Origin: Heterodontus francisci
Lineage: Eukaryota
Assembly: GCF_036365525.1 (NCBI RefSeq)
Contig: NC_090401.1
Location: forward strand, 31,207,036-31,271,035
Length of the DNA: 64,000 nucleotides
Direction: 5' to 3'
Part shown: positions 1,231 to 61,908 of the stretch, piece after piece
Layout of the letters: the number at the start of each line of letters is the position of its first letter
How positions within the stretch are numbered: the first letter of the stretch is position 1
The notes under the pieces: model-generated
Seen by the model: the letters and a program-made list of their open reading frames with translations, nothing else
The model's database searches: none
What the model was told of the DNA's origin: nothing
Made by a program: the position numbers and the translations under genes

Positions 1231-1266
1231 CTGCTCCTCCTGCAACCCAGGCAACTGTCGACCAAT
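1231..1266 (-). CDS. Gene A, 36-nt coding micro-exon (D)WSTVAWVAGGA
   Basis: Flanked by tatttatag and gtaaaa. Symmetric phase 1. Equivalent to the pre-core exon of genes B (WIAGAAAIGA) and C (PYIAVGG). Confidence 0.8.
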
Positions 1267-2177: not shown

Positions 2178-2204
2178 CTATATCACATGAAGGTAGGCTT
2201 GAAC
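2178..2204 (-). CDS. Gene A, 27-nt coding micro-exon (G)SSLPSCDI
   Basis: Acceptor cttccctgttttgcag and donor gtaacc. Symmetric phase 1 with no stop codon. Confidence 0.65.
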   Translation of the reverse strand, partial: VQAYLHVI

Positions 2205-3190: not shown

Positions 3191-3242
3191 CTGTGTTGAA
3201 AGAAGCAGACAAGATCAACGCAATATAGACCAGCTCTCGCAT
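3191..3242 (-). CDS. Gene A, first coding exon MRELVYIALILSASFNT (signal-peptide-like)
   Basis: ATG at 3242 in aaaATG context, hydrophobic stretch, phase-1 donor G|gtgag. An upstream acceptor gives exon 3191-3265. Confidence 0.75.
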
Positions 3243-6671: not shown

Positions 6672-6834
6672 CCACCTCGATCTATTTTTTTTGCAGCAAG
6701 AACAGTCTCCCCCAGTATTTTATAACTGTAGTTTAGAACAGAAAGCCGAGGGACGTCACCTTTTTTTTTCACTATTAATTTTTAACCAAGGCGCTGAAGA
6801 GTCTGTAGATTCAAGAAATGGAAACTCCATTATC

Positions 6835-6852
6835 AGTTTCGTTTCCTCGGAA
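6835..6852. promoter_or_regulatory. ISRE/IRF site overlapping a STAT-type palindrome
   Basis: AGTTTCGTTTCC (GGAAACGAAACT on the minus strand) overlaps TTCCTCGGAA, about 230 bp upstream of the TATA. Confidence 0.65.
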
Positions 6853-7585
6853 ATCCACATGATGTCACTGACAGCTCTTCAGCAGAAGCTTTTATAAATG
6901 CAACAACGTTTAGAGATTTAAAACTTTAGAAGGTGTATGTATGTTGGAGACAGTTTTTAATTTGCCGCACTGATCTGAAACTAAAGTTGTGGATCAATGA
7001 TGTCAATAGAAATGAAAACCAGGCAGTTTCAATAACACTGGCAGATCGGCAGTGTTAGATTTACACCCAAGTGGCAAATTGAGAATCAACCCCATTGTGT
7101 GTGAACGGGATGTTGGAAACCAGTTGTTCTGACAGCAAGGAGGCCGACAGCTCACTGGATTCAGGCTGGCCCAACGTTGGCCACTGGAGACCGCTGGGCC
7201 TGCAGCAAGTTAATCCCAGTAGATTGTCGCAATGGGGATGGAGGGCTGCCCAGTGGCAGTGGCCCGGAAATGGGTGCCGTTCCCTTCTGCCACATGGTTG
7301 GCAACCCCACTGCGGATCACGTGTGGCGGGCGACCATTTTACATAGTAGAGGCAGAGCCCCCCACCACCCCCCCTCCAAATCACATGGCGGGGCGGGATG
7401 CGAGCAGTCAGTTACACCATCAGATGACTCTGGAGCAGGTACTGTTGCCATATTTAAAGGCCTGCCAGCCCTGCATTCACACCTGTTTTGGAGTTGTTTG
7501 CAGCTTTCAGTGTGCTGCTGAAAATGGTGTTGGATTGACTCCTGGATGACCACCACCCCCCAAACTCCCGAGGAGGACACACAAG

Positions 7586-12790: not shown

Positions 12791-12876
12791 TTACTTTACG
12801 TAGCGTAGGATCGAACCTAGGAAAGCACCTGCAGTTCCCAACGCAATGTTGGCACCTGCAGAGAGTCCAGCGGCCC
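12791..12876 (-). CDS. IFI27L2: Gene B, terminal coding exon (G)AAGLSAGANIALGTAGAFLGSILRYVK*
   Basis: Acceptor tcttttctttaaag, typical IFI27 GAAGLS C-terminus, TAA at 12791 and AATAAA near 12710. Confidence 0.9.
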
Positions 12877-13284: not shown

Positions 13285-13446
13285 CAGCAGACTGAAGGAC
13301 AGCCACCAGACTTCCAGCTGCTACACCTCCTCCATTGGCGACAGCTGCTGTAGACATCATACTTGATGCAATAGAACTGCCTGCTATTCCAGCGCTGGTA
13401 AATCCCACTGCTCCCAGAACCACTGGAGCAGCAACAATGGTTGTAA
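13285..13446 (-). CDS. IFI27L2: Gene B, 162-nt ISG12-domain exon (IFI27-like)
   Basis: (V)[53 protein letters not shown], bounded by ccttcag and gtaagc, phase 1-1. The symbol is family-level only. Confidence 0.95.
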
Positions 13447-20928: not shown

Positions 20929-20965
20929 CTGCACCTATAGCTGCAGCTCCAGCTATCCACAACAT
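20929..20965 (-). CDS. IFI27L2: Gene B, first coding exon MLWIAGAAAIGA
   Basis: Exon 20929-20986 with acceptor tttacag, atcATG and donor G|gtaagc in phase 1. Joins the other two exons to give 37+162+86 nt, or 94 aa plus stop. Confidence 0.85.
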
Positions 20966-21126
20966 GATAATCTGCTAATTTGCACACTGTAAACTTAAAA
21001 AAAGTCTTTCATTAGAGGGGAATAAATAAATAAATAATAAAAACCAGTAGATGTATTTGAATTTCCAAAAGGGAATTGATAAGGTGCCACATAAAAAGGT
21101 TATTACACAAGATAAGAGCTCATGAT

Positions 21127-37150: not shown

Positions 37151-37672
37151 CTATTAACACCCAGGCCTATGATTTGCTCCAAATGTCGAGGAATGTTCCA
37201 AGTCAAATATTGAGGAATAAAAAATGCAGTAAATTGAATTTAAATGTATATAAGTATCCATGTGGTTTACTTTCATCTATTTCTACTTTAATAATTTATG
37301 TTGTATGAGGCCCAAGCAAGGATATTGAATTAGGTTCACCATTGAAAATGAGTTTGATACCCCTGCTGCAGTTGCATTATTAATTTCCTTTTTGTTTCCT
37401 CAGAAATCCAGCTAACAGCAAGCCTCCAACTCTGTTGTAAAGTTTGGATTACATACACTAAAGATCAGTTTCCTTTCTAGTTCTAAGAGTGAGATTTCAG
37501 AGCTCTTACAAATTTATTAAGCAATATTTTTACAAGTACAATTGGGAGATATTATTGAACTTTAAAATGCATTGGGGTCAGTTTTTAATTTGCTGCACTA
37601 ATGTGGAACTGGAATTGTGAATCAATCACTTCAATAGAAATGAGCATCAGCCAGTTTCTACAATACACACCG

Positions 37673-41621: not shown

Positions 41622-41731
41622 TTAATCCTTTTTCGTTGATTTTTTATTTTTTCCACACACAAAGTATTGATGGAAATTATATCCACCCTTAGCTCCAAAC
41701 AAACCCCAAGAATAAATCCCAGCCTTTGCCG
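41622..41731 (-). CDS. IFI6: Gene C (IFI6-like), terminal coding exon (A)AKAGIYSWGLFGAKGGYNFHQYFVCGKNKKSTKKD*
   Basis: Strong acceptor tgtttctctcaacag in phase 1. GAxxGYxxHxY aligns ungapped with recalled human IFI6 GALMGYATHKYL. AATAAA at 41558-41563. Confidence 0.8.
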
Positions 41732-44358
41732 CTGTTGAGAGAAACACAGTCATTTAGTTGCTACTAGGATTTTCCTTAAAGAATTAATTAATAATTAGGA
41801 ACAATAATTAAAGGGGATGGTTATTATGCTGTGGCATTTTTTGTGTGCAATTGTATAAAGTAATTATGGGTCCCTGATAGATATTATAAGGGACTCGATC
41901 TAAAGAGAGGTTTAGTTGAAATATAAATTGTTCAAATTGTTACTATAATGCAGGGAATCACATGATATTATCGTAAGATGCAATCATTTTTTCACTGTTA
42001 TATAAAATATGCACTATGAAGTTTCATCCTGCTGATTTGTTTTCTTTCTGTTGCTGATGTGGTGAACATCAGAAATGTTGATGTCTCATTATGGTGCTAA
42101 CGCCCATTCTGAAGGGATTGGTGGTTATAATCTACTTATTTCAATCTTTAAGGAATGCTAATAAGCAGCCAGCCACTAAGAAATAATACAGTGAGTGTCT
42201 GAAATGTGCTCCATTGCACCTTATTTATAAAAGACCTCCCGAGTATCATTCATAATATATCAGGGGCAATGGAATTAGAAGGGGGAGTAGTGCTGGGCTC
42301 ACTGAAAGAATTTAGGAAGAAGTTTGTAAGACCTGTTTTCAGCCAGTAAAGTAAGTGATTTTTGATCAGTTTCTGGCAATTAAATAAAGAGTATTCTTCT
42401 TATAATATATGAAAAATGTTGTGTAAAATTAGACAGCCATTAGCAGCAGTGGCAGACTGTATGCACACAATTAAGCTCCTACTTTCTCACCATCTATACA
42501 ATGAGTTAACAAACTGTTTGAAATCGACAAGTTCTTTATGGGATGAAATTCCAGCACATGTAATGCAATGGGACCTTACGCAATTCCTGTCAACTTTTTC
42601 TGTTGGAAATTCCTATATCCATATTTATAATGGCTATGAAAATTTGTCATGCTGTAATTGCACCATTCCACCAGGTTACAGTGCCACCACCTGTGGGAGG
42701 GTATATTTATATTGTGTCAAGTTTTAATAGGTAGCTACCATTATAAATGTGGATGTAGTAACTCATAGCAGCAATATAAAAATAAGAATAGTATGTAAGT
42801 ATGTGTGTATGCTCTGGTCTAATTACTCCTTGCCTTTTAACCCAACTTCTCTTGAAGATTTCACTTGGTCTGTCTCCTTGTGCATAAGGTCACAAGAGAT
42901 TGAGTAGTTGCTGCTGTATAAATAAACTCGGTCCCCTCACATATTGCACTTATATAAATAAGTCAATCTTTGTATGTAATATTGGAGAGTAGTGCTTTAA
43001 TGGCTGATTTCTGAGTTCATACTAATTAAAATGAATGGGTGGAAAATCATGACTTCCTGATACGAGCAGACAGGAGCATGGCTCCCTGCCAATAGCACCA
43101 ACTCAGAAAAATATCCAGTGTCCATTTGTTTAGGCTGTTTTCTTTTAACGTAGTGAAATTTTGTTCGTTAATTCTCCTGAGAAGCACGTTGGGATGTTTT
43201 ACTACATTAATGAAAGGTATAAAACTAAAGAAGATTAAACCAACTTTCATTTCTAATTTACCAAATATCCCTGCAGCAGTACTCTATGTGCTCAATTTCC
43301 ATTCATTTATAGTCAATGGGTGGAAAATCTAGTGTGTTATCAAAAAATTCTGTTTGTAGAAACATAGCTAAATGAAAACTTTTATTCAGACTTTAAACTT
43401 CAAACTTAGACAATAGTACAGTCTTTCCAAAACTTGTCATAGTTTATATAGGAATCATTTTGTTTTCCTAGTTGTTATTGAGTTCTGAAATAAACTTAAG
43501 GCAGGATTTCTTTTCATTCATTATGGGATATGGATGTCGCTGACATGGCCAGCATTTATTTCCCATCCCTATTTGCCCTTGAGAAGATGGCATTCAGCCA
43601 CTTTCTTGAACCACTGATTAGCGGTTTGGTATAACTGAATGGCTTGCTAAGCCATTTAAGAGGGCAGTTAAGAGTCAACCTCATTCACTGTAGATCTGGA
43701 GTCACATAGAGGCCAGACCAGGTAAGGATGGCCGATTTCCTTCCCTAAAGGACCTAGTGAACCAAACAGGTTTTTACAACAATCTGGTAATTTTATGGTC
43801 ACCGTTTATTGATAATAGCCTTTCATTCCAGATTTATTTAATTAACTGAATTTAAATTCCATTGCTGAGATGTGAAAACTGCTGGAAAGCATTGATAGTC
43901 ACATTAGGGAATGTCTGTTTCCATTAGTTTTAGTTTTGTAAATGTCTTAGTATAAAGTTTCATAATTTCAGAGCTCTTAAATGCAAGCGCTGTGGTCATT
44001 TTAATTATCATATACTTTTGTCTGTAATGAGGAAAATGATTACACTTCCAGGAGCATTTTGTACTGTTAACTGGACTTAGCTGCAATGGTGGGATTTGAA
44101 CTGATATCTCTGGATCAATAATCCAGGCCTCTAAAATTACTAGTCCAGTAACATAACTACTATGTTACTAAATCTACAAAATATAAAAGACACTCATTTC
44201 TGTAGGAGTTCTCCCAATCTCCCAGCCACAGGAGTAATGTAATGTGATGCTGAGATGTGAAATGCAAACAGATCTGCAATGTGTAACACAATTGAGAATT
44301 GCTAGATTAACATAAAGAATGTATAATACTAATTAGGTAAAACAATTATATAACTTAC

Positions 44359-44520
44359 CAAGACTTTGAAACATTGAAACTACACTTCCTGAAGCCACCC
44401 CTCCACCGTTTATGAAGGCAGTGGTTTTCATCATTAAAGCTGCAATGGATTTTGCTGCTATCCCCTTTGTGGTAAATCCAAGAACTCCAAGCACTGCAGG
44501 ACCTCCTAAAATAGCTGCTC
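44359..44520 (-). CDS. IFI6: Gene C (IFI6-like), 162-nt ISG12-domain exon
   Basis: (G)AAILGGPAVLGVLGFTTKGIAAKSIAALMMKTTAFINGGGVASGSVVSMFQSL, bounded by atatag and gtaagt. Same length and phase as the gene B core exon. Confidence 0.93.
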
Positions 44521-44602
44521 CTATATCCAATAGAAAGGTGACATGGCATTCAATAAAATTGTGTTTAACCATTCCTCAACTATATGTAAGTTTTATGCAT
44601 GA

Positions 44603-45690
44603 TGTTATGGACAGGGGAGAGATGATAAAAATTTTCACCTCTCGACTGACCCTAGACAGCGTGATTTTTCAAAAAGTGTTTTATCTCCTGAGTGCTTTAA
44701 TTGTCAGCAACAGACAAATGAACAGGTTTTCTCGTAAGTTTTAAATAAAAGATAAATGTTTATTACTCAACACCCGAATATACGCAAATACACCCACTCT
44801 CACACTCATACAGATACACACACACTCAAGAAAAGATTGTGATTATAAAAGTAGCATGCGTTTAGGTCTTATGATTTCAAGAGTTCTCTGTTAGACTTGC
44901 TTTTCCCTGGGGTGAAGACTTGAAGGGCTGTAATCCTTTTTTGTCTACTGAAGAAAAACTCTAGAGGTTTAGGAGGACGGATTTGCAGTAGCAGATTTCT
45001 CTTGTTATACTCCAGTCAAGGTTCACTGGTGAAGCCCTGGTACAATTCCTCAGGTGGAGAGTTCAAGCCCAACTCGAGTCTCTGCCTACATGTGGTTTGT
45101 AGTTGATGGTTTTTTAGGCAGGGTTCTTTCTCTTTGTTGGCATAGATGTTTCTTTCCATTGTTTGCCCAGTGTTATTAAAACACTTAACAGAAACCTAGT
45201 TTCTGTCATGAGAGCAATGCATCTCTTTCCATTGTCCTCATAAATAGTTTCTGATGGTTAGGCCATTGTCAGACAATGGAGTTTGGGTACCAGTCATCTA
45301 CATACCATCTTGATAAAATAACGCTTTTCACACCCATTCTCGGCATTTCAGGTTTGGAGTTGAAAAGTCTGAAGCAGTATTGAGAACCCTGTTTTTTTTT
45401 AATTAGATGGGGAAATGCCACCGTTACCACAGGAAGGGTCATTTGTATTTTAATGATTTCTCAAAGATATGTCCAGAAAGGTCATTTGCATTTAATGACT
45501 TCACCAAGCCTTGTTCAGACATGAAAATTAGCTCAGGGTTCTTGCAGTTCCATGTGTATTGGCAGGAAAGAAAAGGTCACCTGGCCTCTCAACTCCATTT
45601 TGTATTATAGGTAAGTGTCCATTTCGGGTTTATGCTTGATAAGTTCATATTTATAGTTCATAAGTTCGTACTGCGTGAGCGTGACTATAG
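44603..45690 (-). mobile_element. Probable solo LTR
   Basis: Starts TGTTA and shares the tttatt plus CA-rich layout of the LTRs at 3517 and 59323. The right end and TSD are not resolved. Confidence 0.5.
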
Positions 45691-45719
45691 TTATCATAGA
45701 ATCTACTTGATTAGAGCTA

Positions 45720-48083
45720 AATAGAGGTGCCATAACATTTCTGGGTGTAGTCCATAGGCCACCAACTGGCAGGAAAGATGTAGAGGAACAAATTTGTAAG
45801 GAGATTATAAAGTGATGCAAGAAATATAATGTACTTATAATGGGGAACTTTAATTATCTTCACATAGACTGGGAAAGTAATAGTGTAAAATGGCAGCAAG
45901 GGGCAAGCATTTCTAGAGTGTTCAGGAGAATTTTCTAATGATTGGGCTGAATTTTACCAGCCCCCCGACGGCAAGGGGGGCTGAAAATACCTTTGGGAGA
46001 GGCCCGCCATGGGCCCCAATGCTGGGAAGGCCCCGTCCCATTTTACCGGCAGCGGTGAAACCTTGGGCCGGCACCCCCCCCCACCCCCACCACCCCCCCC
46101 CCACCGCCACCCCCGACCACTCGGCAAAAAACTTTGTTTACATATTTAACTCCACGCTAATAAATGAATAATTACTTACCTCATTGCGATGGCCGCCCTA
46201 CGCCGATATTCCGGTTGGCTGCCAGAGCTCCCGCGCCTTCGGATCTCAAAATGGAACACTGGTGGGGAGGGGGTGGTGTAAAGATTTCAGGGCGAGGGGG
46301 GGGGGGGTGGAAATGGCAAAAACGAACGTGATTGGTTGAGGAAATGATGGCAAGGGGTTGAAGGTTAAAATAAAGAAAGTTCGGGGGAAAGGTCGTGATC
46401 GAAAATTTACTTCCTTTCGGGGGGAGAGGGCAAATAGTAAACTGATTATTCATTGGAGGGGGTGGGAGAGGGGACTGGAAGTGTGAATAACTTTTTATTT
46501 TAAGTTTTTTACCAACCTGTCCCTTTAAACAGTAAAATGTAACAGAAGGGCGTGAAATGGTGCTGGTGCCTACGCGTTGGGACCAGACACTGTTGCCAGG
46601 GATGGAGCGTCCACACCCTTTACATCATCGGGGGAGGGCAGTCCGCCCCCTCCATGATAATGAGCCGCCATGCAAAATATTTCGGCAGCTCCACGGCTCA
46701 CGTCTCATGCATGCACCGCACCATCTTGGAAGCTCACTGCCAAGGTTGGCGGCGAGCTATAAATATTCAGCCCAGTATGTTTCCAGTCCAACGAGGAAGG
46801 AGACATTGCTGTATCTGGTTCTGGGGAATGAGGTGGGTCAAGTGAATCAACATTTGGGGCCAGTGATCATAGTATCATAAGGTTTAGGTTGGCTATGGAA
46901 AAAGACAAGGAGAAATCCAGGGTAAAAATAATTAATTGGGGGAGGGCGAACTTCAATGGGGTGAGAACGGCTCTAGTCCAGGTAAATTGGAATCAAAGAT
47001 TGGCAGGGAAAACTGTAATGGAACAATGGCTGCCTTTAAAGAGGAGATGGTTCGGGTACAGTCCAAGTATATTTCCGTAAGAGGGAAAAGTAGGACAAAC
47101 AAATCCAGAGCTCCCTGAGTGATTAAAGAGATAGAGAGTAAGATGAAGCAGAAAAAGGGTGCATTTCACAGATGTCTGGTGGGCAATACAACTGAGAACC
47201 AGGCTAAGTATAGGAGGGTCAGAGGGGAAGTGAAGAAACAAATAAGAGAAGCAAAGACAAAGTATAAGAAGAGACTGGTAGCTAACATTAAAGGGAATCC
47301 AAAAGTCTTCTATAGGCATATAAATAGTAAAACTGTGGTAAAAGGAGAAGTACAGCCGATTAGGGACCTAAAATGGAATTTACCCATGGAAGCAAGGGGC
47401 GTGGCTGAGGTACTAAATAAGTGCTTTGTAACTGTCTCTACTAAGAAAGCAGATGCTGCCCAAGTCATAGTGAAAGAGGAGGTAGTTGAGACACTGGATA
47501 GGCTAAAAAATTGATAAAGAAGATGTATTAGATAGGCTGGTTGTCATTAATGTTGATCAGTCACCAGGACCAGACGAGATACATCCAAGGATACTGAGGG
47601 AAGTAAGAGTGGAAATTGCAAAGGCACTGGCCATAATCTTCCAATCCTCCTTAGATACAGAATGGTTCCAGGGATGAGGAACTTCAGATTGGAGAAACTG
47701 GGGCTGCTCTCTTCAGAGAAGAGACAATTAAGCAGAGATTTGCTGAAGGTTTTCAAAATCATGAGGGTATGTACAGAGTTGAAAGGGAAAAACTGTTCCC
47801 ATTGGCAGAAGGGTCTAGAACCACAGGACACCGATTTAAGGTGATTGACAAAAGAAGCAACGGGCGACATGAGGAAAAACGTTTTTATGCAGTGTGTGGT
47901 TGGGATCTGGAATGCACTGCCTGAGAGTGTGGTGGAGGCAGATTCAATTGTGGCTTTCAAAAGAGAATTGGACAATTATCTGAAGAGAAAGAATTTGCAG
48001 GGCTACAGGAAAAAGGCAGAGGAGTGGAACTAGGTGAGTTGCTCATGCAGAGAACCGATGCAACCATTTTATCATTCTATGAT
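45720..48083 (+). mobile_element. CR1 LINE (internally deleted), split by a MITE
   Basis: IKGNPKVFYRHINSK and VVGIWNALPESVVEA motifs, with a (attctatg)n tail near 48075. Confidence 0.85.
45944..46773. mobile_element. GC-rich MITE (probable non-autonomous Harbinger)
   Basis: TIRs gggctgaatttta and taaatattcagccc, 3-bp flanks att and agt. The host CR1 is continuous across it. Confidence 0.8.
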
Positions 48084-48199
48084 TCTCAAGTTTCTGTCAA
48101 ATATTTTACCTAAACAGAAGACAACATTTTTGAAGCAGCAAGCACTAACTATTATTGTTATTATTAGTGGTGGATTAGCTAAATGATAACTGTACCAGA

Positions 48200-50110
48200 T
48201 GGAAATGCCCATATTTAAAACACAAGGAACGCGCAATTCAGTAGCGTAGCATAGCTCGAGGTGGTGCTAAAGAGGCCTAGCACCGCTTTCCAGGGACAGA
48301 CATGGCACCAGTGGTTTTAGGCACAACCTGTGCAATGAGGCATGCTCAAAACAGCGCCTGTATGGATGTCCTCAGTGTGCCTCAGAAGCAAATGAAGCAG
48401 CATTATCCTAACGTGACACAGTCTAACCAGCTGATGCGATGCCAGGATCCTAAATTTGGGGTGCACCATTTGTCCAGCAGTCACCTGCAAGTTGGGCCCT
48501 GCATTAGTGCTCCTTAAAGGGCCAGGCACCCAAATTGTAGGTAAGGTAATTTTTGGCATCTTTTTCCATTGCAAAATATCTGGAAGTACTCTGGAGTGTT
48601 TCTGGCAGGCTTTTGTGTTGTGTTCCTGGATTTGCTGGAGAGTGTTGCTGCATTCTCACAAGGTGGCCAGAGGAGTAGGCGACCTGTGCACACAAAGACT
48701 ACAACAGGTAGGGGGTCAGCAATGGCAGTGCTTCTGGGTCTGTAGCACAACAGGGATATTGAGCAGAGGTTGTGGATAGGGCAAATGCTGCGCCATCTCT
48801 GGCCTCTGGGAGCCAGACTCCTCCATGCTCCTTGACAGTGAAAGGAGGCGGTCTGGCAGGCCAGCCAATGCACCAGCATCTTGGAGTGATCGCCCATCAG
48901 CACTCTGCTGTATGCCACCCCACTGAGATCCTCGTCTGAGTGCTAAGCAGCAGTCCACTTGTGTCTGGATGACTTACCACATGCTCATCCCAAGTCTTTT
49001 AGCCTCCAAGGCCAGGCAGCAGTTCATGGGAAGCAGGGAAGATTGGTGGGAGGGAAGGGATGGGTTGTAACAACACCCACCATTAGCAGCTTGCTCATCA
49101 TGCCAGATAGCAGGATAAGGGTGTGCTGGAAGTTGAGAAGGGGCATAAGCCATCACCCTCAATGTACACAGCAATGCCAGATGCCACGGGCCCTCTCACA
49201 GCCAGTCCCCGTGATGTGGACAACTATCTCCTCTGTAGGGCTTGGGAGGAGTGGACTTCATTGTCTATCACCAGTTCTGCTCTGTTCCATTCTATTGTGT
49301 GTAACCTTGTCCTGCAAGGGAGAGGGCAGAATGTAGGTGATTATGTTGTGCTGTGTTTGGGTGATGTGCCTGCTGTAGCTGACTAGCTGGAGGTATGTGG
49401 AGGCAGTGAGAGGTGTGTGTGTGGCTGGCAGCATTGCGAAGTGTGTGAGGGTGAGCTGGAATATCTGCATGTTAGGCATGGGTCTTGAGTGGTAGGGAGT
49501 GCTGCTGGGTGAGTGATAGGGGTGTGGTGCATTGGTAGAATGAGAGGTTGGTGGTGTGGTGAGTAGGAGATGTCATGTGAAAATGCATTTGCTGATGTTG
49601 GCCCCCCATGTGAGGCTATTAGACTATTTTGGCACTGCTGTCAGGTCCTTGGGTCCAGCCACCTGCTCCCTCTCCCTTCTGAGGGCGGTCTGTGAGAGTA
49701 ACCTGGCCCCCTATGGGACCATGGTGTCTCTCCTCCTGCTCACCTGCAGCACTGATGCCTTCAGTGTCACATCTGTCGCCCTGGAACCCTCTGTCTGACC
49801 TGCTGTTCGCTTTGCCATCATTTGAATTGCAGCAATATTCTTCAGTGCAGCTTCCATTTAAGAGGGACAGCCTGCCTTTAAGAACAGCAGGCTGGCTGCA
49901 CCACATGTTTTGCGAACAATGCTGTTTGCACCCTCCTCGCTGAGTGCAGAGGCCGCCAGCAGCATTAAGATGAAGACAGTAGTGGGGGGAACCTGCTCAG
50001 CCAGACGCAACAATCACACAGATGAGGTGGGCGTTGCTCATCTTGATCTGAATGGGCACAGGCAGGTCACTAATCACGACTGCCGAGCCCCAAATATAGG
50101 ACACATGCAT
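48200..50110 (-). mobile_element. Harbinger-derived remnant (Myb side)
   Basis: Colinear similarity to 33530-33819 plus 36406-37150. Boundaries are approximate. Confidence 0.55.
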
Positions 50111-50249
50111 TTCCAAACATAATTTGAAATGAATAGTTCTGCTGTCTTGCCAAGATATGAATTTATAATAGAGATGAATTAAGCAAATTGCAGCTGTACA
50201 TTTCTGCCCACCACTGGCCTTATCCTACTTCCCAGGCAGCACATTGGGA

Positions 50250-50386
50250 TAATAAAAGCAAAATACTGCAGATGCTGGAAATCTGAAATAAAAACAGAAA
50301 GTGCTGGAAAAACTCAGCAGGTCTGGCAGCATCTGTGGAGAGAGAGGCAGAGTTAATGTTTCAGGTCAGTGACCTTTTATCAGAAC
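50250..50386 (-). mobile_element. Penelope-like terminal fragment (degenerate hammerhead)
   Basis: Copy of 33272-33373 with core substitutions. Confidence 0.65.
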
Positions 50387-51757
50387 ATTGGGATAGTAGC
50401 ACCTGACCTATTCTGCAAGCTACTTGTATTCACTAACTGTCTCATTGATAGCCAGTCCATCTGCTCCACAAACCTATGCACAAGCTTCTTAATGTCTGTG
50501 CCAACTAGAGGGTTAAAATATTACCCCAGTGCTCCGATTCAATGCTGTATCTTGTCCTCAGTTACATGGGGCAGTTATTGGGGCATCATAATTGAGCGCT
50601 CCAAACTGTGGAGGAAAGAATCATCTGGCGGGAGTGGGGGCGGGGCGCGGGATGGAGATGGCTTCGTTCCTGATTGATGCCACTGGAAAGTGCACACATG
50701 TGTAAGAGTCCAGAATCTGTCTCAGCTGTGGTGCTCAACAATATAGAATAAGATGCCAAGACCCACTGGACGAGTATAGGAAGAATGCTTCATTGGGTGA
50801 GGTATTGAAGGACAGGCAGCAGCTGTGAAACCTACCTCAGTAAGAACTACACCCTTCAGGAGGGAAAGGAAGAAAAGTCTGGGGAAAATCCTGGGGAATA
50901 ATTGAGAACTGCTGCATTACTGACAAATTTCACCTATTGGCAAACAGCTGTCTGGGCCAGTGTAAGACACTAATATTAGTATGGAATATGCATGTGTGCT
51001 TGTATTTGATTATCATTTTCCGTACAAGGAATGGACACATGCGCAAAAAATGTGAGCAACCATCCTCTCAATTGTAGTGAGCCACGTGGACTTGCATGGT
51101 ATCTACTACAACACCTGCACTAGTCAAGCCTGAAAATGAGCAAGCATGGATCCAATCAGTTTTTCACTTAAATTAGCCAGGGGTGGGAAAGGATGCCAGT
51201 TCAATCCTCGACTCCACAGAGCTCTTGACAACAGCCTTGCTCTGTACAGAAAGACTAACAAAGCCAAGCATTTCCCATAGGGAACAGAGCAAGAAAAAAT
51301 GAGTGGGAAGCCTATACCAAACCATTCTCATGTGGCTCTTGATGGTCAACTAAGAACATGATAGGCAGCTGTCTGAAACTAGGCTACTCATCCACTTGAG
51401 CATAGTGGGTGTATTCTCTGAGATAGGGTGACTGATGAAGTAAGAGGGTGTGTGCATACACAAAAAGATATGTACTCCTCCCTTAAAAAAAAAGCATACA
51501 TCAACCACAATTGTTCCTTTTTTACAGGCATTACAGATATGTCCATTAGAATTGCATATGAAGGAGTAAAGTACTGAAGTTGCATAGCATGATTTCTTGT
51601 CATTAGTTCATAACACACTGTAGCTGCAATATCTGTTCATTATTCTATCCAATCCCGTTGTTGGATGATTTATATATTCAAAGCATTCTCAATATGTTTT
51701 CTCAATATTATTGAGACAAAGCTGCTCTAAGTTGGGAATATTAACTGATGTTCATAC

Positions 51758-51826
51758 CTCCACCAACAGCAATGTATGGGAGTGCGTCCATTAATCCACA
51801 GGAGTCATCCTCATCTGAAAGATGAT
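51758..51826 (-). CDS. IFI6: Gene C (IFI6-like), 69-nt exon (D)HLSDEDDSCGLMDALPYIAVGG
   Basis: Acceptor ttcctcttcctcag and donor gtatga, phase 1-1. Resembles recalled IFI6 SGSGFWKALTFMAVGG. Confidence 0.85.
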
Positions 51827-52727
51827 CTGAGGAAGAGGAAAGATTAAAAAAAAGTATAAATGGCTATATTACCCTTAGTCCTCCATTCTCTTTCCTACCT
51901 CTCTTCTGTTGATGCTGACCCATGATTGAATATGATGGTAAATTCTTGTTGCTGTGGAAAGTCACCGTTGCGCAATTTCATGATATGCATTCCTGATGTG
52001 TGCCAGCAGCATAGAAGTACATAATTTGCCCTCTGATTCCATATGTTACCCAATTTGCTTAATCTTGTGCCTGAGCCCAGGCAGTGAGTGTCAGCAGAAA
52101 AGTTGATTATTGAGCCATCATAGCTGAGCCGAATCCTTTCCTACCCCTGTGCTACCAATAACAAGGGACCATAGATAGAAGGTTATCATTATCTACTATC
52201 TAAATGTAAGAGATTAAGAAGAGAGAGCAAGAGAAACTTAGTTGTACAGATCAATGAAGCTTGTGGAATTCAGTTCCAGGGTTCGTGGATTGTGACAGAA
52301 ACTGTGCCAATACTCAAAATTTGACTGGATGGGTGAATAAAGTAAAAGGGGTTAAAGGGATATGGGAACAGGTCAGGTAAATGTGATTAGTGCTATTTTC
52401 TTGCATAGAGGGTACATGCTAGCACATTTCTTATGGCAGCACTACTGGAATTGTGGGATTAAGGAATTACTTATGAACATACAAAAAAGATGGATAGAAG
52501 AAGGCTATCACCTCTGTTCCATTCAGCTGTGTTGCAATTAGGCAACATGACCCCCAGTGCTCCATACCCTCCAACAGGCATGGCATCCCCTGGGAGTGTC
52601 AAAAAGAAATAGATTTAAAAAAACCTTGGCCAATTCAGGGAAAATAAAATTCTGGGAAATTCCTTTCCAAGGGCAATCAAAAAGAAGCTTCAGGACATAA
52701 CAGTCACTTAAGTACAAGGTACATCAC

Positions 52728-53629
52728 GGTCATGCAGACCCCCACCTGCCAAGAATGAGGCATATTAATTTTGCCATATGGACATTAAATTTCAAATTGT
52801 TGCTGGGAAGAAAAGAAGGTCTATTCCAAGGGCTGCCAGACACTTGGCTGAAAGACATTTGCATACCAATGGGGACAAGAGAGGTTACTTCCCTTATCCA
52901 CTTATCCTAAAATGGACATTGATCACCAAGTATTGTGTGTAAGAAGAGACATCCCAGGGTCAGCTAAGACAAGAGAATCCACAAACACCAAAGTGGTCAA
53001 ACCAGCTAGTCACATGACTAACCTGCTGGGCAACCTGGGCTTTTCTGAATTGTACAAACAGCTTGAGAGAAAAAGAAAGACTGTTTGCTCCTGGACTGAG
53101 AAGACCTCTCCTGTCTGCTCCCATCTATTTCTCACGGAGCTCCAAACCCACCGAAGACACGTGAACCTTGAAAGAGAAAAGTCTCCCACATCAAACAAGG
53201 TTTAAGAAGAATACTGGACCCCAATGAAAAGCGAGACCTACCTACAATCAACGACTCTACAGCAAGCTCTAAGAACAGCAACCAAAACTATCTTCAGATA
53301 TTGCCTCAAACTTTTCCACTTTATTTCTTCTGCTTTTTTCTGTCTCTATCTGCCTGTGTGTATTGTGTATGCATACTAGTGTGGGTGCATCGCGTATCCG
53401 TAAGCATTAACCGAATTAGAGTCTAAGTTTAATAAAGTTCAACCTTTCTGCTTTAAACCTAAGAAAACCTGTTTGATTGGTTTCTTTGCCTTACAATTGG
53501 AAAGCAATGAACAAGGATTCACTAAGGGGGAGCAAAGAAAATGGTGTGTTTAAAATAAAACCCTGTCACGGTTAAGACCAGGTGAAGGCTGAGAGGGAAC
53601 CGTAGACCCCCTTTCACCTGGTTGTAACA
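52728..53629 (+). mobile_element. Solo LTR
   Basis: Ends in TGTAACA, with 4-bp TSD tcac on both sides and an internal AATAAA. Related to 3517-4308. Confidence 0.85.
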
Positions 53630-53842
53630 TCACCCAATATCAGATGCAAGTGTGACACAGAATTTGCATAGCAGCAATGTAACACCTGTGTTGTTTGACA
53701 TAGGAATTGTGAGGAAGCGTGATAGGCAGGCAGTGTGTCCAATCATAAACCTTTTATGATATTAATAGGCAGATAAATAAATGTCTCCATTGGTTAATTG
53801 TACTGTAATAATATATCATTTCATGGCAATATGTCTACTCAC

Positions 53843-53909
53843 CTGTGGTTGCAAATGTGCTTGAAAATAGCAGGTAGGTAATGAAGAAACTGAGTGTCCC
53901 ACAAAACAT
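53843..53909 (-). CDS. IFI6: Gene C (IFI6-like), first coding exon MFCGTLSFFITYLLFSSTFATT (signal-peptide-like)
   Basis: Exon 53843-53974, bounded by ttttacag and gtgagt. Resembles recalled IFI6 MRQKAVSLFLCYLLLFT. The total CDS is 67+69+162+110 nt, or 135 aa plus stop. Confidence 0.85.
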
Positions 53910-55522
53910 AACTGAAATCAGGTGACAGATTATCACAGCAAATATAGTTCCAGCTTCACAGAGCAAATTTCGATCTGTAAAACACAGTAAACTGCATTAT
54001 ATTTTTCCCATTGAAGTTTCTCCCTCCTCCCAAGTTAAATCACAGTTCCATAGTCTATTTTTCATGTGTTAGTCAAAATATTTGAAGTTGGAAGGCTATT
54101 GAACGTTAAGGGCCAAGGCAGCCTGCCCTGTGGTCCCGATGCACAAGGGTAGTTTTTTACCCCACACACTTGCCAGCAAGAGCCACGAGGTAGTGAGCAG
54201 GAGCTCTGGCTGATTGGCCCTCCTAGCCCATGGATACTGAGCCCAACTATAGAAATTGTCTGGACTGCGATCTGACAATTTGGGACAGTTCAAATCTGGG
54301 ACCTTCATAATTTGTGTGGCATTTAACCACTGAGCCATTAGGAAAACCTCCAGTTAGCATTTTAATGTGATGTATACGTAAATAGATTTTTTAATAAAAT
54401 ATTTCATCCACTTTTTCCTTTACTTTGTCAAGAGTTTTATCTTTCTGTTAACATGCATTCTGTGTAATACAAGATTTTCTCATATAACGTCACACCAATT
54501 GTCAGGGAGCAGATGGCATGGTACAAAATAAGTGTGCAATGAGATCAGTCAACAGCTACAAAAGGCTTTGTTAAGAAATAATGCTCTCTGAGAAAAGTTG
54601 CTGCAGTTCTGCATTTTTATGAGAGAAATTATATTACAAATGTGAATGGCTTACACACAAACAAAAATGATGTCCAGGAAAAGACCAGCTGATTCATCGA
54701 CACAGTATAACACATTAATCATGACACTCAATGGTCTCACCGACCAGCAGCCAATGCATCTCTGGCATTTGCCAGCACAGACTTGATGGGCTGTATGGCC
54801 TGCTTCTGTGCCGTAACAATTCTGTGATTCTGTTATATTGGTTCAGGTACCGTAGAGTCATCCATTGTAGCCACCTAAAACAGGCTAACCTGCGAATAAA
54901 GGCTCTTGTTTTAGAGCCCAAACCAGAAATCAGTGCACTCTGAATACCACATTTAAACTTTGGGCTACTGAAGTCCGCTACTTTCCCCAGCCACCACCTG
55001 CCCAATTGCCTCACCCTCCCAACCTTGGCTGGCAACCTAGCTGGTTGATCATAATCCCCACTGTGCCCGGTGAGCTGTCTTTAGGGTTCCAACTAGCACA
55101 TGTATGTCGCTGGTACTATCCAAATGGGGTTGGTGGACTAATTTGCCCTGGTCCTGTGTCGGCCTTATCAGGTGTGTGCATTCTGTGCAGCACTGGGATT
55201 GTGCCCAATTTCCGAATCACTGTATTGACTTGCTGCCCTTTTTGAATATTCCTACATTAGTCTCCCTCTAATGCTTGAGAACAATTCTTGACTCTAGTGA
55301 ATTATTAAATATGTTAGCAAGGGACTTATTTAGCATGGCTCCCATCACTTTAAGCATTCTTGGGTGAAGGCTGTTAGGACTAGCCACCCGATCTTATTTA
55401 AGGTCCCTTATTTTTCCTCAGTTTACATCTATATTCATATTGACATTTGTAACTTTCGTGTTAACTGAATATTGTATTAATGGCAACTGAGCACAGTCTA
55501 CAGGAGTGAAGACTGCTGGAAA

Positions 55523-57829
55523 GTCTTCTTCTCTTCTTTGGCCTCCTTGTCTCGGGAGACAATGGGTAAGCGCCTGGAGGTGGTCAGTGGTTTGTGGAGC
55601 AGCACCTGGAGTGGCTATAATGGCCAATACTAGAGTGACAGACTCTTCCAATGGTGCTGCAGAAAAAATTGGTTGTCGGGGATGTTACACAGTTGGCTCT
55701 CCCCTTGTGCTTCTGTCTTTTTTCCTGCCAACTGCTAAGTCTCTTCGACTCGGCATGCTTTAGCCCCACCTTTATGGCTGCCCGCCAGCTCGGGCGATCG
55801 CTGGCAACTGACTCCCACGACTTGTGATCAATGTTACAGGACTTCATGTCACATTTGCAGACGTCTTTAAAGCAGAGACATGGACGGCCGGTGGGTCTGA
55901 TACCAGTGGCGAGCTCGCTGTACAATGTGTCCTTGGGGATCCTGCCATCTTCCATGCAGCTCACATGGCCAAGCCATTTCAAGCGCCGCTGACTCAGTAG
56001 GGTGTATAAGCTGGGGGTGTTGGCCGCCTCGAGGACTTCTGTGTTGGAGATGCGGTCCTGCCACCTGATGCCAAGTATACTCCGGAGGCAGCGAAGATGG
56101 AATGAATTGAGACGTTGCTCTTGGCTGACATACGTTGTCCAGGCCTCGCTGCCATAGAGCAAGGTACTAAGGACACAGGCTTGATACACTCGGACTTTTG
56201 TGTTCCGTGTCAGTGCGCCATTTTCCCACACTCTCTTGGCCAGTCTGAACACAGCAGTGGAAGCCTTTCCCATGCGCTTGTTGATTTCTGCATCGAGAGA
56301 CGGGTTACTGGTGATAGTTGAGCCTAGGTAGGTGAGCTCTTGAACCACTTCCAGAGCGTGGTCGCCGATATTGATGGATGGAGCATTTCTGACGTCCTGT
56401 CCCATGATGTTCGTTTTCTTGAGGCTGATGGTTAGGCCAAATTCATTGCAGGCAGCCGCAAATCTGTCGATGAGACTCTGCAGACACTCTTCAGTGTGAG
56501 ATGTTGATGCAGCATCGTCAGCAAAGAGGAGTTCCCTGATGAGGACTTTCCTTACTTTGATCTTCGCTCTTAGGCGGGCAAGGTTGAACAACCTGCCACC
56601 TGATCTTGTGTGGAGGAAAATTCCTTCTTCTGAAGATTTGAACGCATGTGAGAGCAGCAGGGAGAAGAAAATCACAAACAGTGTCGGTGCGAGAACACAG
56701 CCCTGTTTCACGCCACTCAGGATAGGAAAGTGGTCTGATGAGGTGCCGCTATGCTGAATTGTGCCTTTCATATTGTCATGGAATGAGTAATGATACTTAG
56801 TAGCTTTGGTGGACATCCAATCTTTTTTAGTAGTCTGAAGAGACCACGTCTGCTGATGAGGTCAAAGGCTTTGGTGAGATCAATGAAAGCAACGTAGAGG
56901 GGCATCTGTTGTTCGTGGCATTTCTCCTGTAGCTGACGAAGGGAGAACAGCATGTCAATGGTCGATCTCTTTGCTCGAATGCCACACTGTGCCTCAGGGT
57001 AGACATGCTCGGCCAGCTTCTGGAGCCTGTTTAAAGTGACTCGAGCGAAGACTTTCCCCACTATGCTGAGCAGGGAGATTCCACGGTAGTTATTGCAGTC
57101 ACCGCGGTCACCTTCGTTTTTATAGAAGGTGATGATATTGGCATCGTGCATGTCCTGTGGTACTGCTCCCTTGTCCCAGCACAGGCAAAGCAGTTCATGA
57201 AGTGCTGAGAGTATGGCAGGCTTAGCACTCTTGATTATTTCAGGGGTAATGCCGTCCTTCCCAGGGGCTTTTCCGCTGGCTAGAGAATCAATGGCATCAC
57301 TGAGTTCCGATTTTGTTGGCTGTACGTCCAGCTCATCCATGACTGGCAGAGACTGGGCTGCAATGAGGGCGGTCTCAGTGACAACATTCTCCCTGGAGTA
57401 CAGTTCGAGGTAGTGCTCAACCCAGCGGTCCATTTGCTTGCGTTGGTCAGTGATTGTGTCCCCTGATTTAGATTTGAGGGGGGCGATCTTCTTGATGGTT
57501 GGCCCAAAAGCTCTCTTAATGCCATCATACATTCCTCTGATGTTTCCGATGTCTGAGGCCAGCTGAATATGACTGCATAGGTGTTGCCAGTAGTCATTTG
57601 CGCAGTGCCTGGCTGTCTTTTGTGCAGCGCTTCTGGCTGCTTTAAGTGGTACGGATGTTAACTCGCTGGGAGCTTTTTTGTAGTTCAGCAGTGCAGTGCG
57701 CTTAGCGGCTATGACAGGTTCCAGCTGTTCAAAATGAGGTTGAAACCAGTCTGCATTTCGCTTCACACGTTTGCCATAGGTGGTCATGGCTGACTCATAG
57801 ATGGCGTCTCTGATGTGGGCCCACATCAT
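55523..57829 (-). mobile_element. RTE-clade LINE, 5'-truncated, relatively young
   Basis: Two long ORFs (353 and 410 aa) separated by one frameshift. Motifs NYRGISLLS, FIDLTKAFD, GVKQGCVLAP, LLFADD and LLYGSEAW, with a GAA-type tail. Confidence 0.95.
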
Positions 57830-58197
57830 TTGAAAACTCTGCTATGTCCTAGATGTGAGTTCACCTGAATCTGTTCTGAGCAATCCTGTAATGGCTGTCC
57901 TTCATCAGTCATTTATTGCACCTAAAATAGCTAAGAACAATTTTATTATTGCTACCAGTTATCTGCTATCTACTTCTCCATTGACTTTCTCCTGCGGATC
58001 GCAGCTTTTGTTGCCCTTAGCTGAGCTTGATACCCATCTTTGTTCTTTTGAGAGTTATTTTCCTTTAGTCTGTAAAAGCATTTTTGCTTAAGTCTCAACC
58101 TCTATTCACACCTGGTTGGGGGCTGGGGGGCAGAAAATAATACTCATTAACTTTATGGACTAATGGAGCAAAAACTATGAAAATGTTGTGATACAAT

Positions 58198-58940
58198 GGC
58201 CAGAATTTTACGGCCCCCAAACGAGCGGGCCGGTGGCAGGGGTGGTGGTGGTCATAAAATTGAGTGGGAGGCTGGGGGCGGGGGGTGGGGGAGGGCCCTT
58301 CCCAACCCCGTCCAGCTCCACTGTAATTTTATGCGGGGCAGCAGCGGTGAGAAACGGTCTGTCCGCCCCAGGCCAATGAAGGTCCTTAAGTGCCAATTAA
58401 CTGGCATTTAAGGGCCACTGCCTGCCACCGCAGGTATTTTACCATTGGCTGGTGGGTGCCGGAGGCCTCAAAAAGCCCCCCTTGGGAGGCCAGGTGGCCT
58501 TCTTGCGGGCTGGTGGCGGGCCCTCCTGATCGGGCACCTTGTGCCCCATGCAGGGCCCCCCCCATGAAGCCCCAACCGCCCCCAAAGCACAACACTAGCC
58601 TGCCCTCATAACCGACCCCCCTTGCCTCACCGGGGCCTGACCGATTGTCCCCGGTGAGGCCGTAAAACCTGCCTTATTTCCGGGGCTGTCCTTCCTGTTG
58701 GTTCCGATGGCTGGGTGTAGTCCCAGCAGTGGCCACCACTCCCGGTGGCACTGCTGGGACTAAGAGCTGCTGGCCGGCAGCTCCATTAGGCCTCAAGGAG
58801 GTGGATGTCCTGCCCAAGACCAATTAAAGGCTTAGGGAGTGAAAAATCCCGATCTGGCTCCCTAGGCCTGGTGGAGGCGGGCTCACCACTGACTTTTCAG
58901 CTGGTGGACGGGGCCTCCCACCCAATGAAAAATTCTGCCA
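58198..58940. mobile_element. GC-rich MITE (probable non-autonomous Harbinger)
   Basis: Termini ggccagaatttt and aaaattctgcc. Internal similarity to 21127-21654, 22320-22770 and 23150-23564/28375-28672. Confidence 0.75.
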
Positions 58941-59322
58941 ACAACTTAGACTTATGTAGCATTCTTAATGTAGTGGAATGTATCCATGTGCATCACTGAG
59001 GGTTGGGTGGGCAAAGAGGACACCAATCAGAAGTTGCAGGAAGAAGGTTATAGGTGTTAACTGAAGGCGTGGTCAAAGAGTTAAGTTTTAAAGGTGGGCC
59101 CTACTGGCCTTTATTTCAAGAAAACAAACTAGGATTTGAATTTTGGTGAAAGCATATTCTTTTAGCTTGAATTAAAAAATACAACATTGAAATGCTGGCT
59201 GTCCCAAAGGCTCAGCTGAGAAAGACAGGGTTAACTGGCCCAAACATACCAGAAGGCTCAGTTTTGATTACTAGATTGTGTAGAGTTAGTTGTTCTCAGC
59301 CTCTCAGGTGCCAGAAGAATTA

Positions 59323-60242
59323 TGTTACAGCCAGCTGATAAGGGATGTGGGTGGTTCCCACTGTTCAACTCTCAGCTGACCACAGCAAGTGTTTTTCTTA
59401 CTAGGGTTTTAACCCCTTTTGTTTTATTTGTCAAATAAACAGACAGCAATAGTTTTTATTGTACGTTTAAAACAGAAGATTAACTGTTTATTGAGCAATA
59501 TTCATTCCCAAAATGGTTGCAACCATACCTGCGCACGCAGTTACTTGCACACATATACACAGGAAGCGATAGATAGAGAGGAAAAGAGATAGGGTTTTGA
59601 AGTGAGGTAGGGTTTGGGGGTTCAGGGTAAACCTGTTGAATCTTCTCAGAGGTCAATTTCTCTAATGTTGTAGGCCTGGGTTGTTTGTAGATTTCTCTGG
59701 TAGTTGAGACTTCAATCTGGAGATGGGAATCACTTTCAGTTCTCTGCTGCACAAGTTGAAGTGTAGAATTTACAACAGGGTACCTTCTTTGGCTTTTGCT
59801 GGATCTCTCAGCTCTTGGCTGGACAGGCTTTTGGGGATGTTGCTCTGATTCTCTCTCTCTCTCTTTCTCTCTCTCTCCAGAGAGCTACCTTTTAAGGTCA
59901 AAATGTTGTCTCTGTTGGGAGACACAGAGTCCCTGCCCTGTGATGACCAATAATGGCCCAGGATGTGGCTACTTTACCCCTTCTTTGTTTCAGAAGAACC
60001 CATTCAATTCAAAAATGTCTTTAGATGGATTCAGGATGAGTGGAATTGACACCTCTTAGCTTGGAATGTATCCTTTAGTCCTTATCAGAAAGTACGACAG
60101 TTTGAATATACAGGCCTGGTCATTTGACCTTTGGTGGCCATTTTTCAGCACACTGTCCATTTTTTAAAGGAAAAGTCAATTTTTTATAACTCTTCAGTTT
60201 GGATTCCGTATTTCAATCGCTGTACATCATGTGAACTTGACA
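59323..60242 (-). mobile_element. Solo LTR
   Basis: Termini TGTTA and TGACA, with 4-bp flanks atta and attg. Confidence 0.7.
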
Positions 60243-60721
60243 ATTGGCAAAGACATTTGATGCTAACTTACCAGGAAAGTCCTCTTTGAGATCCAGCAAC
60301 AACTGCTGGAAAATACACATGTAGATGGCTGGAGAGAACCAAGTTTTTTTTCATTCTTTCATAGGTTGTGGGTGACACTGGCTAGGCCAGCATTTGTTGC
60401 CCATCTCTAATTGCCCTTGACAACTGAGTGACTTGCTAGGCCCTTCCAATGGGCAATTAAGAGTCAACCACATTGTTGTGGGTCTGGAGTCACATCTAGG
60501 CCAGACCAGGTAAGGACAGTTGATTTCTTTCCCTAAAGGACATTAGTGATTTTTTTTAAATGACAATCAATGATAGCTTTATGGCACCAGTACTGAGACT
60601 AGCATTCAATTCCAGACTTTTTATTAATTAATTGTATTTATTGAATTTAAAATTCCACCAGCTGCCATGGTGGGATTTGAACCCATGTCCCCAGGGCATT
60701 AGCCCAAGCCTCTAGATTACT

Positions 60722-60858
60722 ATAAAAGCAAAATACTGCAGATGCTGGAGATCTGAAATAAAAACAAGAAACACTGGAAATACTCAGCAGGTTTGGCAGC
60801 ACCAGTGGAGAGAGAAGCAGAGTTAACATTTCAGGTCAGTGACCCTTCTTCAGAACTG
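60722..60858 (-). mobile_element. Penelope-like terminal fragment (variant hammerhead)
   Basis: Third copy of the block at 33272 and 50250. Confidence 0.65.
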
Positions 60859-61374
60859 AACCTTTTGCATCCATTCAAGATGGTTTAAGGTCTTATCAGA
60901 AAAATGGCACCTCCGACAGTGCAGAATTCCCTCTGAAGTACTGCACTGTAGAGTCAGCCTAGATTACTCATTGTGAAGACCTTGTTAGTTAGCATAATTT
61001 TTAAAAATAACATTTATTGAGACATGTCAAAGATACATCAAGCAAATTCAAACAGATGAGGAAGGTTCTGGATTCAGTGTCTGGTCTTACTGGGTTTAAT
61101 CCCTGGTTAGACTATCTCAGCTGAGGCATGGCAGGAGTACTACAATTTGCCTTAGTATTTCATAGTTAGGGAGGTCAAAAATAGGCAGGGTTCCAAATCC
61201 AGACTTCTATCCAGTGACTCCTCCCAGAAGTACACATACCTGGATGTCAGGGAACAGGTGCGGGGTGGGGAGCTGGAAATGGGGAAGACTGCCTCTGGGC
61301 AGAAAAACTATGAACTTGATGTGTACAGCAAATTTGAAGGTTTTGTTACAAATAGTACAAAGTGAAAATCTTAC

Positions 61375-61434
61375 CTTGGATAAGGGTAACATCGGGCTAG
61401 ATGTCCCCTTTGCTTAAATAGTGACATTCACTAT
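61375..61434 (-). other. Putative 60-nt 5'UTR exon of gene C
   Basis: Acceptor tttgttaactcag and consensus donor AAG|gtaaga. Confidence 0.45.
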
Positions 61435-61746
61435 CTGAGTTAACAAATGACAAACGTCCACGTAGTGGAACGCTGCTGATACTTGTCGGATCATACTCTA
61501 GCAAAGGCTTCAGTACACGAGAGAGAAAAGGGGAGAAAAATTGGCAGAGAAAAGAGGAAAAAGCAGAGATATTTAAGTAAGTATTAAAACACGTAGCGCC
61601 ACGACACAAACATCAGACACCCCTACCGACACTGATTGAAGTGAGAAAGTTAGAAGTAAATATAAAAATTGATCTGTGGCACTATGAATCACTGATTATT
61701 CATAGATTATCGCAAATCCTTCATCAAAAGTATTAGAATACCTTAC

Positions 61747-61908
61747 CGCAGTTTGTTGAAGATCTGTTTGGGATCCGAGTAAAGAAACAAACGAACAGTA
61801 AATGTTAAACTGGCAGCACTGTGGCTTTTTATAAACAGCAGACCTGGCCACATTCCAGGAGAGACACGCCAGTTTCTATTCTGGAGAACAAATTGCAGTT
61901 TCGATTTT
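61747..61908 (-). promoter_or_regulatory. Promoter and non-coding first exon of gene C (TATA plus two ISRE-like sites)
   Basis: TATAAAA at 61833-61827, AGTTTCTATTC at 61871-61881, AGTTTCGATTTT at 61897-61908, and donor G|gtaagg at 61746. Confidence 0.7.

Follow-up and report, generated by a model that had tools for sequence, protein, structure and literature searches.

The window analysed here, a stretch of 64,000 nucleotides of the Heterodontus francisci genome (assembly GCF_036365525.1, contig NC_090401.1, positions 31,207,036 to 31,271,035), carries three genes of the ISG12/FAM14 family on its minus strand, referred to as A, B and C. Gene C, located at 41622..61908 of the window, is best explained as the shark IFI6 lying in an old tandem ISG12 cluster whose linkage is ancestral, a reading to which a probability of about 0.75 is assigned. 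Its evidence comes from the gene model, from similarity searches and trees, and from the contigs on which related proteins are found.

Gene C and its relationship to IFI6

Gene C is a real gene. Its four minus-strand coding exons (Table 1), bounded by GT-AG ends and separated by introns of phases 1/1/1, encode the 135-residue protein of which a preliminary description of this DNA had spoken, and the translation is letter for letter that of XP_067867012.1 (P0001), named [quoted passage not shown] by NCBI. A 341-nucleotide contig of run X3, a run taken by guess to be RNA, aligns without mismatch to 44419-44519 and 53843-53972 and extends about 38 nucleotides past exon 2 into a stretch outside the compared region. 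As the 70-nucleotide gap of this contig equals base 44520 plus the 69-nucleotide linker exon, the leader, linker and core exons are spliced together. The tail exon junction is absent among the listed X3 contig pieces, and these contigs, mostly repeats, give no reading of the expression level.

The core of gene C belongs to the ISG12/FAM14 family according to Pfam PF06140 (E=1.6e-17, 64.8 bits for a cut-off of 29.1), and residues 42-105 match PDB 2LOQ (E=4e-9). The first ESM Atlas match is the IFI6 family (0.93), which may be the protein's own cluster. The four shark motifs quoted in the preliminary description and three ISG12 cores were seen on the minus strand in a six-frame motif scan of the window, in which tblastn identified 3 core exons. 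A core-exon search (three hits among 153 candidates) recovered the identical Heterodontus protein and orthologues from Heptranchias and Carcharodon. Genes B and C have in common the 162-nucleotide core exon and the phase-1 introns.

Each exon had been thought to match human IFI6, which is true in part. Against shuffles, the linker matches clearly (p=0.001) and the tail is borderline (p=0.37 with P0248, 0.04-0.05 with P0242 and P0245), whereas the leader does not match (p=0.08-0.13) and the core, scoring 127 against human IFI6 and 131-151 against non-IFI6 family members, does no better than with the latter. The equal offset noted for the tail motif is real, as it stands 12 residues past QSL in shark and human alike, all four shark motifs being present. 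Among bony-vertebrate IFI6 targets, the linker matches seven of seven (p=0.001) and the tail five of seven (p=0.001 for turtle, platypus, opossum, lungfish and axolotl, not for human P0248 and pig), and neither matches any of the nine non-IFI6 targets. The comparative case for orthology is strong via non-placental intermediate species rather than via human IFI6.

Similarity searches point to the same species. Among the best 150 of 431 phmmer hits obtained with gene C, the best non-shark match is turtle IFI6 (E 2e-28), followed by a lungfish IFI6-like protein (1.5e-23) and a Logan protein. Behind these come IFI6 of platypus, caecilian and pig as well as newt and golden mole proteins. A profile search, considered for its best 120 of 287 matches, added C orthologues from Mustelus, Scyliorhinus, Stegostoma, Pristiophorus and Callorhinchus amid turtle and mammal IFI6, and no named ray-finned fish, bird, lizard or crocodile row occurs among these 120. 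In reciprocal BLASTP within the fetched protein sets, a check proposed in the preliminary description together with a maximum-likelihood tree, human, pig, opossum and tortoise IFI6 (4/4) prefer C among the three genes of the window, and three IFI27-type queries prefer gene B, the primate IFI27-type labels resting on resemblance. Gene C prefers human IFI6 (77.8 bits vs at most 67.4), and the two are reciprocal best matches, in agreement with the trees.

The main tree comprises 73 rows hand-picked from about 390 fetched proteins plus gene B, with multi-domain proteins trimmed to one domain, several non-IFI6 rows labelled by resemblance and a root resting on one mussel domain. Under LG+C20+F+G4 with 137 columns, the 30 rows of IFI6 type, gene C with them and 8 of the 30 from cartilaginous fishes, all lie to one side of a branch (100/96). 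When 24 redundant, long or partial rows are dropped, the 19 IFI6-type rows of the resulting 49-row subset stay together at 100/98, with all columns and leader-free alike, and 18 of the 19 still group on the 53-column core alone (93/87). An assignment of gene C to the IFI27 subfamily was rejected, as it does not group with IFI27-like genes in the trees. Gene C is thus very probably the shark orthologue of IFI6, as the trees, phmmer and reciprocal BLASTP concur in suggesting, and the trees support the earlier proposal that IFI6 and IFI27 would have split before the divergence of sharks and bony vertebrates.

Alternatively, gene C could have arisen in the shark lineage by duplication of A or B and have come to resemble IFI6 by convergence, or its place in the trees could reflect long-branch attraction or a composition effect. 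In favour of this are the short length and biased composition of the proteins, the name "IFI27-like 2A" that several C orthologues bear at NCBI, and the core-only alignment (53 columns), which does not reject three shark-only groupings in approximately unbiased (AU) tests (p-AU 0.077, 0.39 and 0.30). However, a shark-only clade of C, A and B, singled out beforehand in the preliminary description as the grouping that would speak against IFI6, corresponds to the 0.077 on the core, and both the full alignment (p-AU 1e-59) and the leader-free one (1.3e-5) reject it. The grouping C+A is rejected as well (1e-4). The site-mixture model recovers the same IFI6 clade, and the linker and tail motifs as well as both cysteines are common to turtle, platypus, opossum, lungfish and axolotl IFI6 and occur in none of A, B and the other non-IFI6 targets. 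Taken together, this leaves an origin of gene C by shark-lineage duplication very improbable.

The affinities of the two neighbours are looser. Gene B shares a 17-row group with short forms of teleosts, sauropsids and mammals (90/52) and joins teleost isg12 on the core (99/89), and gene A leans to the leader forms of gar, bichir and lungfish and to the IFI6 side (92/94). Of these two genes, both called IFI27-like in the preliminary description, B alone leans to IFI27 proper, neither position being strongly supported. A and B as a shark-only pair were rejected (p-AU 0.007). Besides the core-only tests, two features of the trees weigh against the overall reading: A and B have no firm place with respect to mammalian IFI27, and amphibian rows lie outside sharks plus amniotes within the IFI6 clade of the 73-row tree, which is not the species order.

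Database names fail to track orthology because C orthologues carry both "IFI27-like 2A" (P0002, P0003, P0179, P0187 and P0193, in five species) and "IFI6-like" (Heterodontus and Mustelus). Platypus has two near-identical IFI6 proteins (P0224, P0263) on different contigs (46.4 and 142.0 Mb). Extra IFI6-type paralogues of salamanders (P0279, P0289, P0010, P0013) have adjacent accessions and the NCBI name IFI27-like, two of them being devoid of both cysteines discussed below.

Linkage of the cluster and the paired cysteines

Human IFI27 is located at 14q32, apart from IFI6. The latter is placed on chromosome 1 in the available text of PMC10687481. In other vertebrates, linkage was approached through the equal size of the contigs reported with the proteins. 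By this measure, IFI6-type and IFI27-like proteins share a 22,439,983 contig in Callorhinchus, where their accessions are consecutive (XP_042194834/5), a 115,848,844 contig in Carcharodon, a 20,801,946 contig in the turtle Pangshura tecta and a 19,368,400 contig in another turtle, Trachemys scripta. The two turtles count as one observation, of a shared contig and not of adjacency, a 20-Mb contig being about 1% of a turtle genome. That the genes are linked in holocephalans, elasmobranchs and turtles is explained most simply by an ancestral linkage, and the separation seen in mammals would therefore be derived. On such comparisons, an ancestral tandem linkage of IFI6 and IFI27-like genes is likely, and the separate IFI27 cluster of mammals probably represents the derived state.

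A competing explanation accepts gene C as IFI6 and holds that in the ancestor of jawed vertebrates the mammalian IFI27 locus already stood apart. A and B would then be other old or local paralogues at the IFI6 locus, and IFI6 and IFI27 would have parted elsewhere than in this cluster. The lungfish genes are unlinked, no teleost IFI6 occurs among the matches listed, and zebrafish carries eight tandem isg12 genes on chromosome 13, as given in the accessible parts of 10.1101/693333 and PMC11899128. Moreover, turtle and bird IFI27-like proteins form their own clade apart from mammals, and joining B with mammalian IFI27 does not give the best tree (log-likelihood 5.7 lower, p-AU 0.067). All this would suit an early separation, to which two observations are opposed. 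The turtle IFI27-like genes lie on the IFI6 contig, and paralogues share a contig in Heterodontus, Carcharodon, Callorhinchus, Mobula, Pristis and Hypanus, a tally that includes all cartilaginous-fish species with at least two listed paralogues and a stated contig in the best 120 hits per list; one Callorhinchus protein is also found on a second contig. An early separation is accordingly held to be rather improbable.

Returning to ancestral linkage, three points tell against it. Contig size is only a proxy for linkage, the Pangshura pair is probably not adjacent because its accessions are 96 numbers apart, and in lungfish the IFI6-like gene lies on a contig of 1.26 Gb and the IFI27-like gene on another, of 2.0 Gb. 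Emydura is uninformative, with both gene types on different short scaffolds. Five of seven bird IFI27-like rows with megabase-scale contigs are on contigs of 6.5-7.7 Mb, the size of microchromosomes, which is suggestive only. Tandem origin with ancestral linkage, as proposed in the preliminary description, is plausible and unproven, the shared contigs of Callorhinchus, Carcharodon and the two turtles supporting it and lungfish not. The linkage is also wider than that description had it, as it is not special to sharks and is found in chimaera and turtles as well.

The protein of gene C has one cysteine before its first membrane helix (Cys32) and one after the last (Cys125). Both are present in 23 of 27 non-placental IFI6-type rows; two rows, both salamander paralogues, lack the pair and two retain the second cysteine alone, one of these being 5'-truncated. 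In placental IFI6, both are absent from 54 of 54 rows. That the two are lost together suggests a luminal disulfide, although the independent events are few, and the sequences give a Cys32-Cys125 bond roughly an even chance. Speaking against this bond are P0006, which retains the second cysteine only, and the di-lysine ends, a signal functional only in the cytosol, carried by 10 of 27 non-placental rows and 0 of 8 cartilaginous-fish rows. A low-confidence AlphaFold model of gene C (pLDDT 59.9, pTM 0.38) shows helices at residues 3-20, 34-58, 71-82, 90-102 and 105-133.

The mechanism could also differ, with a cytosolic tail, an acylated Cys125, a basic end serving in retrieval to the endoplasmic reticulum (ER) and no bond between the cysteines. 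The di-lysine ends would agree with such an arrangement, and the position of a cysteine next to a membrane helix and basic residues is common for acylation. Less compatible are the absence of a canonical di-lysine end in the shark protein and the loss of the cysteines together in placentals and in two salamander paralogues, so that an acylated tail is considered possible but doubtful.

In the available parts of PMC8228428 and PMC11559068, human IFI6 is described as an ER-localised, BiP-assisted protein preventing the formation of flavivirus replication organelles, and in that of PMC10687481, as a signal peptide followed by a hydrophilic region, membrane regions and a hydrophilic end. By analogy, and from what is known of the family, interferon signalling would induce gene C through sites resembling the interferon-stimulated response element (ISRE). 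The leader would take the protein into the ER, and the Gly/Ala-rich core would lie in the membrane and hinder its remodelling by viruses, as reported for human IFI6, with the luminal bond between Cys32 and Cys125 as the most likely arrangement. As to the cluster, tandem duplication before the split of sharks and bony vertebrates would have generated three old ISG12-family lineages, namely C (IFI6), A (the signal-peptide form) and B (the short IFI27-type form), which would have stayed linked in cartilaginous fishes and, on the scale of the chromosome, in turtles.

A broader scenario, advanced tentatively, regards the locus as the original three-gene ISG12 array of jawed vertebrates, made of IFI6, a leader sister form found in gar, bichir and lungfish, and a short IFI27. 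True IFI6 would have been lost in ray-finned fishes and birds, IFI27 would have moved in mammals, and the ancestral protein would have been a disulfide-clamped ER hairpin whose clamp was lost in placentals. If true, this scenario would fix the topology of IFI6 and offer a natural series for studying the block of viral replication organelles.

Putative promoters, neighbouring genes and repeats

The upper end of the studied feature, 61908, falls in a putative promoter with two ISRE-like sites, a TATA-like box and a donor after 61747. The pattern AANNGAAACTG, chosen after the sites had been seen, has 4 matches in 64 kb for 1.14 expected, a number reached in 3 of 100 shuffles, and all 4 sit in the three putative promoters. 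About 100 bp ahead of their ISRE-like site, genes A and B have a similar 95-bp upstream block, the copy at 37572..37666 presumably belonging with the gene B exons. These blocks are alike though the A and B proteins represent separate old lineages, and could be a conserved regulatory module, the result of gene conversion or a repeat. No counterpart upstream of gene C was found by B-vs-C comparison or nhmmer, and the A-vs-C comparison of upstream blocks scores 33 for a background of up to 31.

Table 1. Features of the window and the basis of each assignment (window positions; IRF, interferon regulatory factor; UTR, untranslated region)
Feature	Position	Strand	Basis
Gene C distal ISRE/IRF-like site	61896..61906	-	pattern AANNGAAACTG
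Gene C proximal ISRE/IRF-like site	61870..61880	-	pattern match
Gene C TATA-like box	61827..61833	-	sequence
Gene C putative non-coding first exon	61747..61805	-	GTAAG donor after 61747; 5' end estimated
Gene C exon 2: 5' UTR, ATG 53909, hydrophobic signal-peptide-like leader (coding 53909-53843)	53843..53974	-	splice contig; helix 3-20 in low-confidence model
Gene C exon 3: acidic linker, Cys32, ALPY motif	51758..51826	-	IFI6 linker match
Gene C exon 4: ISG12 core (PF06140), 162 nucleotides	44359..44520	-	Pfam E=1.6e-17
Gene C exon 5, coding part: IFI6-type tail, Cys125, basic end	41622..41731	-	gene model
AATAAA downstream of gene C exon 5	41563-41558	-	sequence
Promoter block upstream of gene B	37572..37666	-	79% identical over 95 bp to gene A block
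Gene B ISRE-like site	37466..37476	-	pattern match
Gene B first coding exon, ATG 20965, short N-terminus, no leader (coding 20965-20929)	20929..20986	-	sequence model
Gene B ISG12 core exon, 162 nucleotides	13285..13446	-	Pfam E=1.2e-21
Gene B tail exon, IFI27-type	12791..12876	-	gene model
Promoter block upstream of gene A	6944..7038	-	alignment with gene B block
Gene A ISRE-like site	6834..6844	-	pattern match
Gene A signal-peptide-like leader exon	3191..3242	-	model = first 78 residues of P0059
Gene A 27-nucleotide exon	2178..2204	-	gene model
Gene A 36-nucleotide exon	1231..1266	-	gene model
Gene A ISG12 core exon, cut by window end	1..121	-	Pfam E=4.1e-13

Genes A and B are on the same strand as C, and no flanking gene lies within the window. 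Gene B is complete, with three coding exons and a short form of 94 residues, and gene A is cut by the left end of the window. The first 78 residues of the latter are those of the NCBI protein P0059, located on the same 65,096,992-bp contig. Residues 93-135 of P0059 match a long terminal repeat (LTR)-like repeat (window 53145-53249 and 3885-3932), so that its C-terminus probably stems from exonisation of a repeat or from an error of prediction; orthologues carry a normal tail, and this end was dropped as a genuine gene A tail.

Leaders like that of gene A also exist in gar, bichir/reedfish, lungfish and canary paralogues and, according to the part of PMC9144789 available, in a shrimp homologue. 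A leader is therefore no marker of IFI6, and its use as proof of IFI6 identity was rejected, gene A having one and the leader of gene C failing to match the human one.

Between the putative promoter and the first coding exon of gene B sits a SEC61G-like retrocopy (window 30449-30645, minus strand; Pfam SecE/Sec61-gamma E=3.5e-6) that lacks introns, carries a frameshift and has AATAAA and a run of A behind it. Two LTR-retrotransposon-like elements (window 23565-28372 and 33822-36405) have terminal direct repeats 86% and 92% identical, respectively, and interiors resembling decayed gag/pol by eye.

Comparison with known members of the family

In the part of 10.1101/693333 available, ISG12 is taken as a young family, IFI6 and IFI27 being joint orthologues of the zebrafish cluster; going by the present trees, the split between IFI6 and IFI27 is earlier. 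Turtle and echidna IFI6 and the family are treated in the accessible text of PMC9144789, and the corresponding parts of PMC11899128, PMC11545081 and PMC11835228 contain nothing further on orthology. A search that excluded subscription journals and bioRxiv supplements found no publication on shark IFI6 or on IFI6-IFI27 linkage, and neither the evolutionary reading nor the cysteine lead was found in print. NCBI and UniRef already label the gene C protein and chimaera and turtle proteins IFI6 or IFI6-like, which limits the surprise.

IFI6 ranks among the leading effectors of interferon against flaviviruses, and a shark orthologue would date it to the origin of the interferon system and place it in the first jawed vertebrates. 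This implies that neither teleost isg12 genes nor the chicken gene of that name may serve well as models for IFI6, and the paired cysteines would provide a cheap handle on its topology.

Compared by description, the chicken gene shares with IFI6 only the name and the family domain. It encodes 107 residues from three exons on chromosome 2 with 22-30% identity to mammalian IFI6 (PMC10119460, PMC10687481) and falls outside the vertebrate group in a tree (PMC9144789), as stated in the available portions of these papers, and is probably another family member, not the same gene. IFI27, IFI27L1, IFI27L2 and teleost isg12 have the ISG12 core PF06140 and occur in tandem clusters as here, but they do not have the IFI6 linker and tail motifs and are closer to gene B than to gene C. 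Human and placental IFI6 have the same order of parts (PMC10687481, available text), a reciprocal best match and about 40% identity to gene C, from which they differ in that placental IFI6 has neither cysteine, therian IFI6 is short of four residues in the core, and the tail of the human protein is acidic. The closest known relatives are the IFI6 (G1P3, 6-16) proteins of turtles, monotremes, marsupials and lungfish, which belong to the same clade with 43-50% identity. These proteins, like gene C, combine a leader, an acidic linker, a cysteine with ALPY, the core and a tail with a histidine, a cysteine and a basic end, whereas gene C is without the Ser-Trp core motif of the amniote rows and without a di-lysine end and, unlike its turtle, monotreme, marsupial and lungfish counterparts, stands directly in tandem with two paralogues.

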